From: Escherichia coli
Lineage (GTDB): Bacteria; Pseudomonadota; Gammaproteobacteria; Enterobacterales; Enterobacteriaceae
DNA: 64,000 bases
Assembly (NCBI RefSeq): GCF_051903065.1
Contig: NZ_CP178438.1
Reading direction: 5' to 3' (one strand)
Below, one piece after another: positions 39,501 to 45,500 of this stretch. The position numbers were made by a program. Every line of letters begins with the position of its first letter. Within the stretch, counting starts at the first letter, position 1.

Positions 39501-42500
39501 GATAAGTAACGTATTCAAGTTGGGAAATAAGGCATTGTGTAAACTTGTTAGTTTATTATGGGATAGATCCAGCAGTAAGAGTTCTTCTTTATTTCCTGCT
39601 ATAATATCAGTTAATTGATTATGGCTGAGATTCAGGTATTGCAGCCATTCGCAAGATTCTAATTGCACAAACTCTAGCTGATTATGTGCCGCACTAAAAT
39701 AAGTAATTGATGAAAGCCTATCTATATCAATATTTCTGAGACAATTATTATTCATAGATATATGTGTAATGCTTACATTTCTGCCTTGAGGAAAATTTAT
39801 TGACTCAAGAGCGTTACTATTCAGACTAAGTTTTACGAGTCTATCGTAGTTGGTTGCATCAAAATGTGTGAGTTGGTTATTATCAAGATTGATAGAGGTG
39901 AAGTTTTGCAGCCCTGGTGGTTGAGTAGTTAAATTAAGTCCTGATAAATCAATGTCATTCTGTTTCGACAAAAAAGCACAGTTTATCCTTTTAGCGGCTT
40001 CGTTTCGACATTCCGGACGATGGATTTCACCTGTAAGTATACGTTCTTCTTTCCATTTATTTAATTCGAGCATCCAGTTAAGTTGATTTTTTTCTGGATG
40101 TTGCTGTATGGATTGTGGTTTTATTTTGTTAAATATTGAAGGGAATTTCATAACTGCTCCGTAGTAATACAATGTTTTTCTGATTTATCACCCTTGATAA
40201 ATCAGGATGTGTTTTATAACTCTGTTGTAAAGGATTGGCTTAACCAATTATTGCATGTTGGACCATAACCTAAGGAAGGTTTACTCTCATTATGAATATA
40301 ATAACAGACGGGTGTGCCCGTTGGGTCCTTGAGCCCCGAGAGTGAGGATAGAGAAGAGGAATTTGACTTATAGTCACCAACCCCGTACATGCGACGCATA
40401 GGCAGAATAGCTTTTAGTTCTGCGTCAGAAAATATTGTTTCTTCTTCTATTAAGGCGGAATCTCTGGAATAATATTTTGATCTATAACGAATAGACATTG
40501 AGTCATTGTCTTTTATATAATTACCTTCTGAATTATCGCTTATTTCTGCAAGATGTTCATCACTGGTATCGATATTTGTGATTGCCAGGTTATAAGATAA
40601 ATCAATGGTCACTTCATTAGTGTCATCAATTATATTTCTTACTGCAGTCCAGTACTGCATTTGTGCAAGTGAATCATTGTTGATGCCGTTAACTAATACA
40701 TGCCAAAGATGTTTTGATGATATTAGTTGATCAATGTCATTGGTTGGCAATAAATTGTTATTGCTTAAGTTTAAATATTCAAGTTTTGTAGTGGTTTTGG
40801 TGTTTAAATGTGCAATATGGTTGTCGTTTAAAGTGATTGTTTTCATCCTGGGATGATTGTGTAATATAAGGTCAGTGATCATATTGTGATGGGCACTTAA
40901 CTCAATCAGAGATTCTTGCCGGGAGACATCCAGCGATGCTAGCTTGTTATAATCAAGATTAAGAAATTTCAGTTTATAACTATCAGAAATATTAATTTTT
41001 TTAGATTATTATTTTGCGCTTCCAGATTAACCAATGAATGCTGATTTTTTAAATCTAAACTTTCCAGATTATTATGATCAATATAAATGTTTTCCAGATT
41101 TGATTCATTTGGAAAGGTTATCGTGTTAATTTTATTAAAGCTGAGGTTGATATTAACGAGACTGGCATTGTCAGTAAAGTCAAGACAAGTTAGACAATTG
41201 TTTTCCAGATTTAACGTATTAACTGTCGAGGGGATAGGCGGTAACTCACTCAAATCAAGATATGACAAATCAAGAGATGCCATGTTCGAATTGTAAGCTT
41301 CTTTAATTCGCTCCACGGCAATTGCTCTTTCTTCACCATTATTAAGCAACTTATTACCCCATTGTTCTAGTCGTTCACAAAAATTGCTGGAGATGGTTTC
41401 TTTGTTAGGTAATGCGTTATTAAATTGATAACTGGCATTATTTTTTACACAAGCTGTATTAATATTGGTCATAATCACTCATCAATAAATATTATAGTAA
41501 GATGTCCCCGGGGGGTATGGAATAATATTAATTGAGGTGAATGACCAGAAATATCAAAAATTGCTCATTTTTACTTAAGGAGTCATACAGCAGCACTTAA
41601 ATCAAAAACCAGCCCAGAGAAGGGCTGGTCAGGAGAGGATGTTAGAACTGATAGGTAATGCCCGTAGCGACGATGTTATCGGTGCGAATATCTACGGCAC
41701 GGGTAAAGTCGCTTTCATCAATCAGGTTGATTTTATAATCAACATAGGTCGACATATTTTTGTTGAAGAAATACGTCGCACCAACGTCGATATACTCAAT
41801 CATGTCCTGGTCGCCGTAGCGGCCCAGATCTTTGCCTTTCGATTTCAGGTAAGCGAGTGATGGGCGCAAGCCGAAGTCGAATTGATATTGCGCCACCACT
41901 TCAAAACTTTGTGCTTTGTTCGAGATATAACCATCCCCATAGGTGGTCATGTTTAATGTTTCAGCGTAATTAGCTGCAAAGTAGATGTTGTTGGCATCAT
42001 ACTTTATACCTGTGGCCCACAGTTCTGCATTCTTACCGGAGGCATTGAGAGGATTAGCAGCGGCTCTTTCCTGCGCATTTGTCCGATCGGATTTGGTATA
42101 TACCGCACCGATACCAAAGCCATCATAAACATAAGTTGAGGAGATACCGAAACCGTCACCGTTGGCACGCGTGTAGTCAGCACCATAAAGATGACTGTTG
42201 TCAGTACGTTCATTTTTGCCTTGATATTGCGCGGCAAAGTTCAGCCCTTCAATTAAGCCAAAGAAATCGTAGTTGCGATAGGTTGCTACACCGGTGGTAC
42301 GGTATGTCATGAAGACATCTTTCTGACTCCAGGTATCGCCACCAAATTCTGGCAACATATCGGTCCATGAACCAATGTCATAGCCGACACCGTAGTTACG
42401 ACCATAGTCCAGAGAGCCAAATTCACTAATTTTTAAACCAGCATAGGCCAGACGGGTCTTGTTGCCGCGCGAGCCGTTGGCTTCATCGTTATAGCCTTTA

Positions 42501-45500
42501 AAATCATATTCCCAGTGACCAAAACCAATCATTTGATCATTGATTTGCGTTTCTCCTTTAAAGCCGAGACGGGCATAAGTTTTATCACCATCGTCACGCT
42601 TATCATCAGTAAAATAACGTAGAGCGGTAACCTTGCCATAAAGGTCGAGTTTATTACCATCCTTGTTATAGACTTCGGCAGCGTGTGCTACGTTCGCAGC
42701 TAACAAACCAGTTACAACCACCGCAACTATTTTTAATTTCATTTAACAGAATCCTTTTAATTATCGTTAAACGTATTTTTTAAACGAATTTTAAACGGCG
42801 TCATTTATAAATGACATACTGTTTTTAAAATAGAATGGTGATTAAAAACAATGAGAAAAATAGATGAAATAATATTATTTATCGATATGTGATCGAAGTC
42901 GAAATGAGATATAAGGTGAATTACTGGTATTTGAAATTTATTTTTTTAATATTGTCGGAATTTATCTGATTAACTGCCGGGCCGTAGACCCGGCAGTTAT
43001 TTTAACCACGACGTGTCGCCAGCCAGCAGAGCAGGGAACCGCCGCAGACCATTAGCGCGCCTTGCCAGAATGAGAACGACAGCGGGGCGCTGAGCAGCAT
43101 GGCTGCAAGCGCTGAGGAAAGTACGGGCGTAAAATACGAACCTACCGCCATAATGGTGACGTTGCCATGCAATATACCGACATTCCATGCAGCATAAGCA
43201 AATCCTAAGGTAAATGCCGCAGAGATGAGTTTAATTATGACGGGCGTGCTAAATACCATTTCTGGTTGTGGCGTGAGAAAATAGTAAACCCACAGACTTG
43301 CTCCCGTTAGCAGGACAAAAACGGTAATTCCGTTAAATCCGCGGGCGTATTTATTCGTTACTGTGCAATAAGCGGCCCAGATAAACGCACCAATGAACGC
43401 CAGGAAATAACTCAATGGGCTGGTGGTGATATTATTGATGATTTCATCATAATGTAACCCATTGTCACCGCCTAACACCCAGCAGACGCCGACGAGGGCT
43501 AATAATAATCCAGGTACAATCAACCAGTTAGTTTTCTGACCATTAAACAGAATGGCAAAGAGAATTGTCAGGCTGGGCCACAGATAGTTCACCATACCCA
43601 CTTCAATCGCCTGATGACGGGTCGCCGCATACCCTAAGGAAAGCGCCAGACAGATTTCATAGCTGACGAATAACAGACTCCCGGCGAGTAAATAGCCTTT
43701 CGGGATTTTCCGAATACGCGGAAATCCAACCGTGAAGATTAACAGCAGCCCGCTTAATGAATAGATAGCAGCTGCGCCGCCGACCGGGCCGAGCCCCTCA
43801 CTGACACCGCGAATCAATCCTACCATCGTGCTCCACAGGACGATCGCTATTAGCCCTATGAGCGTTGCTTTTTGTCGTGTCATGCTCGCTGTTTTGTCTC
43901 TCTTGCCGTTAAAAATTAAGCTGAATTTTATAGCATTTTTTTAACTGGCCTGTCAGGCAGTGGTGCGTTTTTCTACCGCTATTGAGGTAGGTCAATTTGC
44001 GCAGGCGGATTATTTTGTGGCAAACACGTGTTCTTTTTGATTTCGCGCAAAAAGATTCAGAATTTTACTGTTAGTTTCCTCGCGCAGTAATACCCCTGAA
44101 AAAAGAGGAAAGCAATGGACGTCAGTCGCAGACAATTTTTTAAAATCTGCGCGGGCGGTATGGCTGGAACAACAGTAGCGGCATTGGGCTTTGCCCCGAA
44201 GCAAGCACTGGCTCAGGCGCGAAACTACAAATTATTACGCGCTAAAGAGATCCGTAACACCTGCACATACTGTTCCGTAGGTTGCGGGCTATTGATGTAT
44301 AGCCTGGGTGATGGCGCGAAAAACGCCAGAGAAGCGATTTATCACATTGAAGGTGACCCGGATCATCCGGTAAGCCGTGGTGCGCTGTGCCCGAAAGGGG
44401 CCGGTTTGCTGGATTACGTCAACAGCGAAAACCGTCTGCGCTACCCGGAATATCGTGCGCCAGGTTCTGACAAATGGCAGCGCATTAGCTGGGAAGAAGC
44501 ATTCTCCCGTATTGCTAAGCTGATGAAAGCTGACCGTGACGCTAACTTTATTGAAAAGAACGAGCAGGGTGTAACGGTAAACCGTTGGCTTTCTACCGGT
44601 ATGCTGTGTGCCTCCGGTGCCAGCAACGAAACCGGGATGCTGACCCAGAAATTTGCCCGCTCCCTCGGGATGCTGGCGGTAGACAACCAGGCGCGCGTCT
44701 GACACGGACCAACGGTAGCAAGTCTTGCTCCAACATTTGGTCGCGGTGCGATGACCAACCACTGGGTGGATATCAAAAACGCTAACGTCGTAATGGTAAT
44801 GGGCGGTAACGCTGCTGAAGCGCATCCCGTCGGTTTCCGCTGGGCGATGGAAGCGAAAAACAACAACGATGCAACCTTGATCGTTGTCGATCCCCGTTTT
44901 ACGCGTACCGCTTCTGTAGCGGATATTTACGCACCTATTCGTTCCGGTACGGACATTACGTTCCTGTCTGGCGTTTTGCGCTACCTGATCGAAAACGACA
45001 AAATCAACGCTGAATACGTTAAGCATTACACCAACGCCAGCTTGCTGGTGCGTGATGATTTTGCTTTCGAAGACGGTCTGTTCAGCGGCTACGACGCTGA
45101 AAAACGGCAATACGATAAATCGTCCTGGAACTATCAGTTCGATGAAAACGGCTATGCGAAACGCGATGAAACACTGACTCATCCGCGCTGTGTGTGGAAC
45201 CTGCTGAAAGCGCACGTTTCCCGCTACACGCCGGACGTTGTTGAAAACATCTGTGGTACGCCAAAAGCCGACTTCCTGAAAGTGTGTGAAGTGCTGGCCT
45301 CCACCAGCGCACCGGATCGCACAACCACCTTCCTGTACGCGCTGGGCTGGACGCAGCACACCGTGGGTGCGCAGAACATCCGTACTATGGCGATGATCCA
45401 GTTGCTGCTCGGTAACATGGGTATGGCCGGTGGCGGCGTGAATGCATTGCGTGGTCACTCCAACATTCAGGGTCTGACTGACTTAGGTCTGCTCTCTACC

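Follow-up and report, generated by a model that had tools for sequence, protein, structure and literature searches.

We report that a stretch of Escherichia coli DNA (contig NZ_CP178438.1; the whole 64,000 nucleotides analysed are hereafter called the window) carries an intact porin gene that is probably the chromosomal E. coli orthologue of Salmonella OmpD; in E. coli it appears to have sunk from the rank of a major porin to that of a minor one, or of one expressed conditionally. The gene itself is already known and annotated in public genomes: RefSeq labels the window copy 'porin OmpC', one source has already given the name 'ompD' to the exact protein, and the copy in O157:H7 EDL933, Z2239, already figures in the literature as a putative porin of the outer membrane, with the match of yddL to its 5' end on record (PMC3079680). 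Z2239 is the same gene in the form of a different allele in a different strain background; the two copies differ at 13 nucleotide positions and 2 amino acids (G93D, K304I), while strains 23CRST027 and 23CRST031 match the window at 100% across 22 kb. The data show directly that the gene is intact and of the porin family, its orthology by position, its deletion in K-12, its spread among E. coli genomes, the signals of selection on it, and its loss of codon bias and of complementarity to MicC. Pore activity, expression level and regulation are matters that we infer. The gene and its neighbour are placed as follows.

41642..42742, minus strand: porin coding sequence, an intact yddL allele and probable orthologue of Salmonella ompD (open reading frame, Porin_1 match, alignment, synteny, tree)
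42680..42742, minus strand: predicted signal peptide, codons 1-21 (read from the sequence; the solved mature chains of OmpC and OmpK36 begin at query residue 22)
43002..43883, minus strand: yddG, encoding an aromatic amino acid exporter (DMT/EamA), which regularly lies upstream of porins of the ompD type (NCBIfam equivalog PRK11689, 472 bits; gene order in Salmonella, C. koseri, E. cloacae and E. albertii)

The ORF listing of the window gives a single reading frame with exactly these porin coordinates, with an ATG start, 366 amino acids and zero internal stops. Residues 27-366 match Pfam PF00267 Porin_1 over the full model (1-337 of 337; E 7.1e-135), and residues 22-366 align end to end, with few gaps, with the solved chains of OmpK36, OmpC and OmpF (E 1e-127 to 1e-112). 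By eye, rather than by a dedicated predictor, the N-terminus reads as a signal peptide of the Sec type, with the cleavage motif AHA and a predicted cut before AEVYNKDG; the mature porin would then have 345 residues, and its N-terminus fits the canonical AE(V/I)YNKDGNK of general porins. The protein ends in GITYQF, whose Y364, Q365 and F366 are invariant in an alignment of 19 sequences. The initial annotation had claimed a complete 366-residue general porin with a signal peptide and a C-terminal YQF, on which the reading frame, the Porin_1 match and the alignment agree, and it had placed the protein in the OmpC/OmpF family, where the full-length Porin_1 match and the solved chains also place it.

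All of the constriction residues are kept (in OmpF numbering, K16, R42, R82, R132, D113, E117 and PEFGGD), and the L3 region differs by a change of G131 to Y and of a T to K within L3. Because the AlphaFold model is of low confidence (mean pLDDT 61, with the N-terminal half below 50) and was set aside, the fold rests on homology, and a 16-stranded beta-barrel is strongly implied by the alignment to solved porins. The product would be exported by Sec with removal of the 21-residue signal peptide, BAM would insert it by way of the C-terminal YQF signal, and in the resulting trimer of 16-stranded barrels a pore constricted by L3 would admit small hydrophilic solutes by diffusion.

The case for orthology begins with position. 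The order in the window is fdnG (plus strand), yddG (minus) and porin (minus), and the mirror image of this arrangement, fdnIHG <- yddG -> porin, is also found in Salmonella, where the porin is OmpD, in C. koseri and in E. cloacae; in E. albertii the porin occupies the same yddG-linked site and is split by IS1. About 200 bp upstream of the porin align, with conserved blocks, to Salmonella, C. koseri and Enterobacter, and the terminator hairpin is conserved. By this match of position, promoter-proximal sequence and terminator, the gene is therefore to be regarded as the chromosomal orthologue of OmpD. An NJ tree places the porin within an OmpD/NmpC clade (92-99% bootstrap), apart from OmpC, OmpN, PhoE and OmpF, and groups it with the yddG-linked porins of C. 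koseri and Enterobacter at a moderate 76%. Inside the clade, the order among the window porin, Salmonella OmpD and NmpC is weakly resolved, by NJ only, and an OmpD-only clade that excludes the NmpC-like porins has weak support (42% bootstrap); the window porin is 74% identical to Salmonella OmpD, less than the 80% of the prophage NmpC-like porins. The comparison with OmpN/OmpD-type porins suggested in the initial annotation was the right lead, in that synteny, flanks and tree all point to an OmpD orthologue.

The E. coli gene that is equated with ompD in the literature is nmpC (PMC3333887). We rejected an identity of the window gene with the NmpC/Lc prophage porins, since no phage genes surround it; the NmpC-like porin P0063, for example, sits between a Q antiterminator and holin and lysozyme genes, in a lambdoid prophage. 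Because genes of the NmpC type lie in prophages, away from the yddG locus, they would be paralogues or xenologues and not the positional orthologue.

In K-12, a deletion has removed most of the gene together with neighbouring sequence that encodes leucine-rich-repeat (LRR) proteins in the window.

40922..42467, no strand: segment absent from K-12, 1546 bp, O-island 62 of EDL933 (comparison with K-12)
40969..41478, minus strand: 169-aa LRR open reading frame, N-terminal piece of a split LRR gene of the Z2240 type (open reading frame, profile matches, PMC3079680)
40214..40882, minus strand: 222-aa open reading frame, C-terminal piece of that split LRR gene, Z2241 type (open reading frame, PMC3079680)
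38895..40172, minus strand: EspR1-type LRR gene of a T3SS effector family, GC 0.335 (open reading frame, profile matches); as listed it begins at TTG, and the RefSeq version has about 419 aa

The K-12 gene yddL (b1472) is a reading frame of 291 nt that corresponds to the 5' end of the porin gene only. It keeps the first ~93 porin codons, and from the promoter region through the first ~281 nt of coding sequence it is more than 99% identical to the window; its product YddL, with 96 aa, cannot form a barrel. The missing segment, whose size has been given as 1,548 bp (PMC3079680), is bounded by a direct 6-bp repeat, TTGCCG, at 40916-40921 and 42462-42467, and its removal takes out porin codons ~94-366, the terminator and the 169-aa LRR reading frame. 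That is, yddL is a 5' stump of the porin gene, produced by a deletion with TTGCCG microhomology. The initial annotation had described yddL as a fragment, correctly, and because yddL is only the remnant of this 1546-bp deletion, the porin is, as had been proposed, an extra gene relative to K-12.

The control signals around the gene are as follows.

42743..43001, minus strand: yddG-porin intergenic region, 259 bp, with putative promoter and 5' UTR (alignment, homology)
42888..42903, minus strand: conserved upstream block TTCGACTTCGATCACA (alignment)
42752..42756, minus strand: Shine-Dalgarno AAGGA, 9 nt 5' of the ATG (sequence)
42665..42676, minus strand: MicC-equivalent site, codons 23-26 (RNAduplex)
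41607..41630, minus strand: intrinsic terminator behind the porin gene, a GACCAGCCC-loop-GGGCTGGTT hairpin followed by a T run (sequence, cross-species alignment)

Placed by homology to Salmonella ompD, whose 5' UTR is 69 nt (PMC3333887), the transcription start would lie near 42815, with a -10 element TAAAAA at 42822-42827 and a weak -35 element TTGTTT at 42846-42851; a consensus promoter scan ranks another candidate, 42817-42788, and not the one placed by homology. We envisage a single-gene transcript whose promoter, homologous to that of ompD, would be weak and would probably need an activator. Farther upstream, CGATCACA is invariant in all five aligned sequences and, at ~80 bp from the putative start, is possibly a CRP-type half-site, a reading that we offer because Salmonella ompD is under cAMP-CRP control. 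The AAGGATT block is invariant in the upstream alignment among E. coli, E. albertii, Salmonella and C. koseri. At the 3' end, the terminator is homologous to that after ompD in Salmonella, C. koseri and E. cloacae, and homology with these three species stops just past it, where the AT-rich LRR island starts. In Salmonella, MicC pairs with ompD mRNA at codons 23-26 (PMC3333887); RNAduplex finds no MicC target with the 12-bp duplex in the E. coli porin, where the site is broken (-6.8 kcal/mol, against -15.8 in Salmonella and -15.7 in C. koseri).

Codon usage bears on abundance, not on orthology. By Nc and Fop, the window gene (49.7 and 0.55) does not have the codon usage of a highly abundant porin that is seen in its three orthologues from Salmonella, C. 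koseri and E. cloacae (Nc 30-34.5, Fop 0.78-0.85; Salmonella ompD itself 34.5 and 0.78); the values are 29.0 and 0.91 for K-12 ompC, and 46.3 and 0.52 for phoE. Such usage points to low expression. In the one proteome report, on EDL933, Z2239 is credited with 2 peptide hits, OmpC with 123 and OmpF with 38; the Z2239 hits could be shared with another Omp porin, NMSTYVDYK being among the peptides common to both, and none of 11 Z2239-specific tryptic peptides occurs in the supplementary text of that report. Published protein evidence for the porin is weak.

The initial annotation had called the gene possibly silent, and for low expression the codon usage and the ratio of 2 to 123 peptide hits speak in its favour. 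A stronger form of the idea is that the gene, though intact, is in effect silent: a cryptic relic that is turning into a pseudogene and whose frame has stayed open only by chance or through recent ancestry. We surveyed 5426 complete E. coli genomes, of which 1101 (~20%) carry the gene; 3141 (58%) have the K-12 deletion junction, and in a further 1118 (21%) narU is joined directly to yddG and everything between is lost (B2 type). That some 80% of genomes have lost the gene, by at least two different deletions, is what decay would produce, as are the further lesions: a nonsense allele, E78*, in 68 genomes, a frameshifted copy in SCU-482, another deletion allele in P0005, and the IS1 insertion in E. 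albertii. A codon bias decayed to the level of a quiescent porin, the failure to verify unique Z2239 peptides in the EDL933 supplementary text, and the faster protein evolution of the Escherichia branch in Tajima tests (unique changes 41 vs 12 and 46 vs 26) lean the same way. Against this, the gene is intact in 11 of 13 evenly sampled carriers, and 13 alleles, which differ by up to 3.8% at the DNA level, segregate at 50 synonymous and only 9 nonsynonymous sites (pN/pS 0.05); alleles 9 to ~20 synonymous sites apart encode identical proteins, which would not be expected under neutral drift. The pore-lining residues, signal peptide, Shine-Dalgarno sequence and terminator are likewise all intact. 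In carriers, strong purifying selection acts on the gene, and a dead gene is for this reason unlikely. With codon bias and the MicC site lost but selection strong, we expect a functional yet minor or conditionally expressed porin. In our preferred history of an OmpD orthologue, then, the gene would have passed in E. coli from major to minor or conditional porin, and most lineages would later have dropped it, by either the 1546-bp deletion seen in K-12 or the complete deletion of the B2 type.

Far less credible is that a single AT-rich island brought in both the porin and the LRR effector genes by horizontal transfer. The segment is missing from K-12 and is listed among the O-islands; Okeke et al. 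regard this island, with its GC of 33-36%, as a recent acquisition (PMC3079680); and the intergenic DNA flanking the porin is AT-rich. However, the porin itself has a GC of 0.446 and a GC3 of 0.452, resembling phoE and ompN, against 0.316-0.351 for the three LRR reading frames; porin, promoter and terminator are co-located and homologous in Salmonella, C. koseri, E. cloacae and E. albertii, in all four of which the LRR genes are absent at this site; and the absence from K-12 is a deletion, with 6 bp of microhomology, that cuts through the coding sequence. On composition and gene order, the porin is ancestral backbone and not part of the LRR block. Thus the LRR genes do adjoin the porin, as first noted, but the two do not share an AT-rich block, the LRR island beginning just past the porin terminator.

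That the gene is a second copy of OmpC, as its RefSeq name implies, has almost nothing to recommend it: it does pass the NCBIfam model NF007841 'porin OmpC' (497.6 bits, cut-off 484), but this is a subfamily model that also admits Salmonella OmpD (527), NmpC-like porins (529) and OmpN (594) and scores true OmpC at 752 bits, while identity to K-12 OmpC is 62%, the tree separates the two, and the locus differs from that of ompC-micF.

More tentatively, and with some doubt on our part, we suggest that yddL rather than prophage nmpC is the true OmpD orthologue, and that an ancestral major porin was demoted in Escherichia, lost independently at least twice (the deletion found in 58% of genomes, K-12 included, and the B2 deletion) and kept by strong purifying selection in the remaining lineages, among them O157:H7 and strains of groups D and F that Okeke et al. 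list (PMC3079680). If this is so, a lineage-specific role is to be found, such as outer-membrane partner of YddG, phage or colicin receptor, or antigen. Recognition of an OmpD orthologue would correct the common equation of ompD with nmpC, and it accounts for the K-12 orphan yddL, which is what a deletion left behind, with a promoter and signal-peptide region still in place. About one in five E. coli genomes, O157:H7 included, has one general porin more than models built on K-12 allow for, and this surface protein could bear on antibiotic permeability, on sensitivity to phages or colicins, and on antigenicity in pathogenic lineages. The RefSeq label 'OmpC' is misleading, and the value of the finding lies mostly in annotation and comparison; it opens no new kind of biology.

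The closest known system is OmpD of Salmonella enterica (STM1572, annotated nmpC too), which likewise lies directly downstream of yddG, facing away from fdnGHI, and which the window porin resembles in signal peptide type, L3 loop, pore residues, Shine-Dalgarno sequence and terminator. Within L3 the two differ by G131Y and by T to K. The upstream intergenic region of the window, at 259 bp, is about half the 524 bp of Salmonella; downstream, the window has LRR effector genes where Salmonella has a GFA-domain gene, smvA and smvR; and Salmonella ompD keeps the strong codon bias and the 12-bp MicC site that the E. coli gene is without. Among the porins of Salmonella, OmpD is the most abundant (PMC4215857), and nothing points to such abundance in the E. 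coli copy. The induction of OmpD by anaerobiosis, its repression at low pH and its part, with YddG, in methyl viologen efflux are described for Salmonella only (PMC4215857 and references therein). The NmpC/Lc prophage porins share the OmpD/NmpC clade, at 69-72% identity to the window porin. OmpC, OmpF, PhoE and OmpN of E. coli belong to the same Porin_1 family, with the same architecture and identical constriction-zone residues, but they are just 59-62% identical to it and occupy separate loci and separate clades.

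The porin gene is a single long open reading frame on the minus strand (41642..42742), which in the six-frame list encodes 366 amino acids from an ATG start with zero internal stops. The protein is complete, as the initial annotation had described it: residues 1-21 read as a typical Sec signal peptide, the canonical mature porin N-terminus follows directly, and the C-terminus is YQF. The Pfam Porin_1 match spans the entire model (E 7e-135), and residues 22-366 align end to end with the solved chains of OmpK36, OmpC, OmpF and PhoE (E 1e-127 to 1e-101). A ribosome-binding site (AAGGA) lies 9 nt before the ATG, and beyond the stop codon there is a strong intrinsic terminator (41630-41607); an Rfam search at the gene returned zero known RNA elements. 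An AlphaFold2 model built on a 19-sequence alignment is of low confidence, with a mean pLDDT of 61 and the N-terminal half below 50, and the predicted porin fold is based on homology to the solved structures. The constriction residues K16, R42, R82, R132, D113 and E117 and the PEFGGD turn of L3 are all kept. Two changes in L3 are lineage-specific, namely a Tyr before R132, where other porins have Gly, Gln or Lys, and WSQKD in place of WTQTD; we speculate that each might make the pore slightly narrower or shift its charge.

The genes around the porin are arranged as follows.

33352-37215, minus strand: narZ
between narZ and the EspR1-type gene, minus strand: narU
38895-40172, minus strand: EspR1-type leucine-rich-repeat (LRR) gene
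40214-40882 and 40969-41478, minus strand: second LRR gene, split into two open reading frames
41642-42742, minus strand: the porin gene
43002-43883, minus strand: yddG, adjoining the porin
after yddG, plus strand: fdnG and fdnH

RefSeq gives the same arrangement in O157:H7 and in ECNB21-M121, the annotated strain that first emerged as nearest to the window, and strains 23CRST027 and 23CRST031 match the window at 100% identity over 22 kb. ECNB21-M121 has an IS903B copy between narU and espR1 (1432-2355 of its locus, L001), and the window lacks it. Two neighbouring genes appear in pieces. The 222-aa (40214-40882) and 169-aa (40969-41478) minus-strand frames are two pieces of one LRR gene, which a frameshift divides, as it does in O157 (Z2240/Z2241), and which EAEC 042 has whole, as orf1600 (PMC3079680); the LRR match comes only from the 169-aa piece, the 222-aa piece having zero family matches. 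On the plus strand, fdnG is listed as two frames (44115-44702 and 44751-47162) because its in-frame TGA is a selenocysteine codon, and a SECIS_3 element (Rfam, 84 bits) lies at the break, at 44697-44755. It is one gene, 44115-47162, as in RefSeq.

The initial annotation had given the K-12 locus as only a fragment, and base-by-base comparison bears this out. In MG1655, yddL (b1472) is a 291-nt open reading frame annotated as a 'putative uncharacterized protein', and RefSeq gives the MC1061 copy as a porin without its C-terminus. What K-12 retains, at more than 99% identity, is the 259 bp upstream of the gene and its first ~281 nt. It lacks 1546 bp (window 40922-42467), including porin codons ~94-366, the terminator and the 169-aa LRR frame. 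The hexamer TTGCCG stands at both edges (40916-40921 and 42462-42467), and the gap is a simple microhomology-mediated deletion, of which yddL is the 5' remnant. The missing segment corresponds to O-island 62 (1,548 bp) of O157:H7 EDL933, in which the porin is Z2239; the likeness of yddL to the 5' end of that gene had been pointed out by Okeke et al. (PMC3079680). A second K-12 deletion of ~635 bp (window 39961-40595) joins the beginning of the split LRR gene onto the EspR1-type gene, and K-12 yddK and yddJ are explained by it. The two deletions account for the K-12 structure, and the 'insertion of yddK' proposed by Okeke et al. (PMC3079680) is not needed.

Which porin is it? Among its closest relatives outside Escherichia are the porins of Citrobacter koseri (78% amino-acid identity) and of Enterobacter and Lelliottia (74-75%) and Salmonella OmpD (74%); prophage porins of the NmpC/Lc type follow at 69-72%, and K-12 OmpC, OmpN, OmpF and PhoE at 59-62%. 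The evidence of the neighbourhood is decisive. In Salmonella enterica, C. koseri and E. cloacae a porin lies directly downstream of the EamA-family gene yddG, beside fdnGHI, and the Salmonella copy carries the name OmpD at its source; four outgroup loci were compared, which we judged enough to settle gene order. The adjacency of yddG and ompD is also documented in E. hormaechei (PMC11874173), and the title of Santiviago et al. 2002, as cited in PMC4215857, links smvA, yddG and ompD in Salmonella. Beyond the porin, Salmonella and C. koseri have a GFA-domain gene, an MFS/TetR pair that we read as smvA and smvR, narU and narZ. In E. albertii the same place holds an orthologue broken by IS1. This copy (L007, CP034213, 5137-7014) is 91% identical over its alignable part, and downstream of it lie a second IS1 and an RHS gene, with no LRR genes seen there.

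The non-coding DNA agrees with the gene order. Over some 200 bp before the ATG the sequence can be aligned with the ompD upstream regions of Salmonella and C. koseri, and CGATCACA, an A-rich -10 region and AAGGATT are among the conserved blocks. Salmonella, C. koseri and E. cloacae share the terminator hairpin, and homology stops right after it. In a bootstrapped NJ tree the window protein falls inside the OmpD/NmpC clade (92-99%) and groups with the yddG-linked porins of C. koseri and Enterobacter (76%). From the neighbourhood, the flanking non-coding DNA and the tree, we conclude that this is the E. coli orthologue of ompD by position; the exact protein already bears the label 'ompD' in one database source.

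Two other names can be set aside. The RefSeq label 'porin OmpC' comes from a subfamily HMM that lets through OmpD, NmpC and OmpN as well; its cut-off is 484 bits, the window protein reaches 497.6, and true OmpC reaches 752. In the literature the E. coli gene usually equated with ompD is nmpC (PMC3333887), but by position that gene is a prophage paralogue: an NmpC-like porin of E. coli was located inside a lambdoid prophage, with the Q antiterminator on one side and the lysis genes on the other. As for clustering, the 90%-identity cluster that holds the window porin (9017 members) is represented by a 603-aa LepA/EF4 protein and includes many Roseburia LepA members. This mixture looks like a clustering artefact, and it is probably why the full-length E. 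coli cluster was absent from the homology search.

The porin had been placed in the same AT-rich block as the LRR genes, and this detail alone of the initial interpretation fails. The GC content of the porin gene is 0.446 (GC3 0.452), near the values of phoE and ompN, against 0.316-0.351 for the three LRR frames. Together with the conserved terminator boundary, this means that the acquired LRR DNA has its left edge immediately downstream of 41607. By comparison of the loci, the LRR genes stand where Salmonella and C. koseri have the GFA-smvA-smvR segment.

We surveyed 5426 complete E. coli genomes, counting the gene as carried if at least 80% of the part missing from K-12 was present. Carriers number 1101 (20%), O157:H7 and O145 among them; group D EAEC, UMN026, IAI39 and SMS-3-5 also carry it according to Okeke et al. 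(PMC3079680). The K-12 deletion junction occurs in 3141 (58%), and in 1118 (21%) narU is joined straight to yddG with nothing between, as in CFT073. Since the outgroups have the gene, both porin-less states are secondary losses. The 'annotated features' column of the similarity search hides pseudogene flags, and intactness was judged by direct sampling of alleles: 11 of 13 carriers, chosen to cover the identity range evenly, have an intact porin. An allele-specific probe found a nonsense allele, E78* (GAA-to-TAA at codon 78), in 68 complete genomes; DA33137 (L018) and KY 1497 (L020) carry it though labelled 'porin OmpC'. The copy in SCU-482 (L019) is frameshifted, and in the protein P0005 a deletion has joined the first ~278 residues of the porin to the tail of the 222-aa LRR frame. 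These are independent inactivations in carrier lineages. Another protein, P0001 (365 aa, from a 2.1-kb metagenome contig), is OmpC-like over its first ~120 residues and essentially identical to the window porin thereafter; it is either a natural recombinant of ompC and the ompD orthologue or an assembly chimera.

Where it is kept, the gene is constrained. Thirteen alleles, up to 42 nucleotides apart, segregate at 50 synonymous and 9 nonsynonymous sites (pN/pS 0.05), and several genomes encode the same protein from differing DNA alleles. The deeper branch gives another picture: in Tajima relative-rate comparisons with E. cloacae as outgroup, Escherichia-specific amino-acid changes are in excess, at 41 versus 12 in C. 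koseri, and 46 versus 26 in Salmonella.

Features associated with expression were compared as well. MicC pairs with 12 bp of Salmonella ompD at codons 23-26 (PMC3333887). The duplex energies are -15.8 kcal/mol in Salmonella, -15.7 in C. koseri and -6.8 in E. coli; the site is preserved in the C. koseri orthologue and broken in E. coli, where we predict that repression by MicC has been lost. The promoter inferred by homology has a poor -35 (TTGTTT), a -10 of TAAAAA and a conserved upstream TCACA block, and looks activator-dependent. Homology puts the transcription start near 42815; a consensus scan proposes another candidate, at 42817-42788. At the homology-based start the window has GTCATTTATAAATGAC, a perfect palindrome of 16 bp (42800-42815, minus strand). 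O157 has only an imperfect version of it and Salmonella and C. koseri do not conserve it, and it is probably a chance occurrence in AT-rich DNA rather than a regulatory site.

The only protein-level report found gives 2 peptide hits for Z2239 in EDL933 grown in DMEM, where OmpC has 123, OmpA 62 and OmpF 38 (PMC3420319). In the supplementary tables of that paper we found 0 of 11 Z2239-specific tryptic peptides, and we did find NMSTYVDYK, which is common to OmpC and Z2239; given such shared peptides and no specific ones, the two hits are weak evidence of expression. A literature search by locus tag and protein accession returned no functional study of the porin.

Codon usage was summarized by Nc, which is reference-free, and by Fop, whose set of optimal codons was taken from general knowledge.

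Codon usage of the window gene, its orthologues and K-12 porin genes
Window ompD orthologue: Nc 49.7, Fop 0.55
Salmonella ompD: Nc 34.5, Fop 0.78
C. koseri orthologue: Nc 33.6, Fop 0.82
E. cloacae orthologue: Nc 30.0, Fop 0.85
K-12 ompC: Nc 29.0, Fop 0.91
K-12 ompF: Nc 37.1, Fop 0.79
K-12 phoE: Nc 46.3, Fop 0.52
K-12 ompN: Nc 40.4, Fop 0.64

The window gene is without the strong codon bias common to its orthologues, ompC and ompF, and we read its codon usage as suggesting a long history of low expression.

The porin itself was already known: over a thousand complete genomes have it annotated, and the literature mentions it as Z2239 of O-island 62. What is added here is the exact deletion behind yddL, the assignment of the gene to ompD by position and its separation from OmpC and prophage NmpC, the distribution of the three locus states across E. 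coli, and the contrast between strong purifying selection and lost high-expression features; the result is tidy yet ordinary. The main rival reading is that of a silent gene drifting towards loss, against which stands the purifying selection. On our best reading the gene would encode an OmpD-type porin that works but is made in small amounts or only under some conditions, and its codon usage is like that of phoE and ompN, which are conditionally expressed or quiescent porins.
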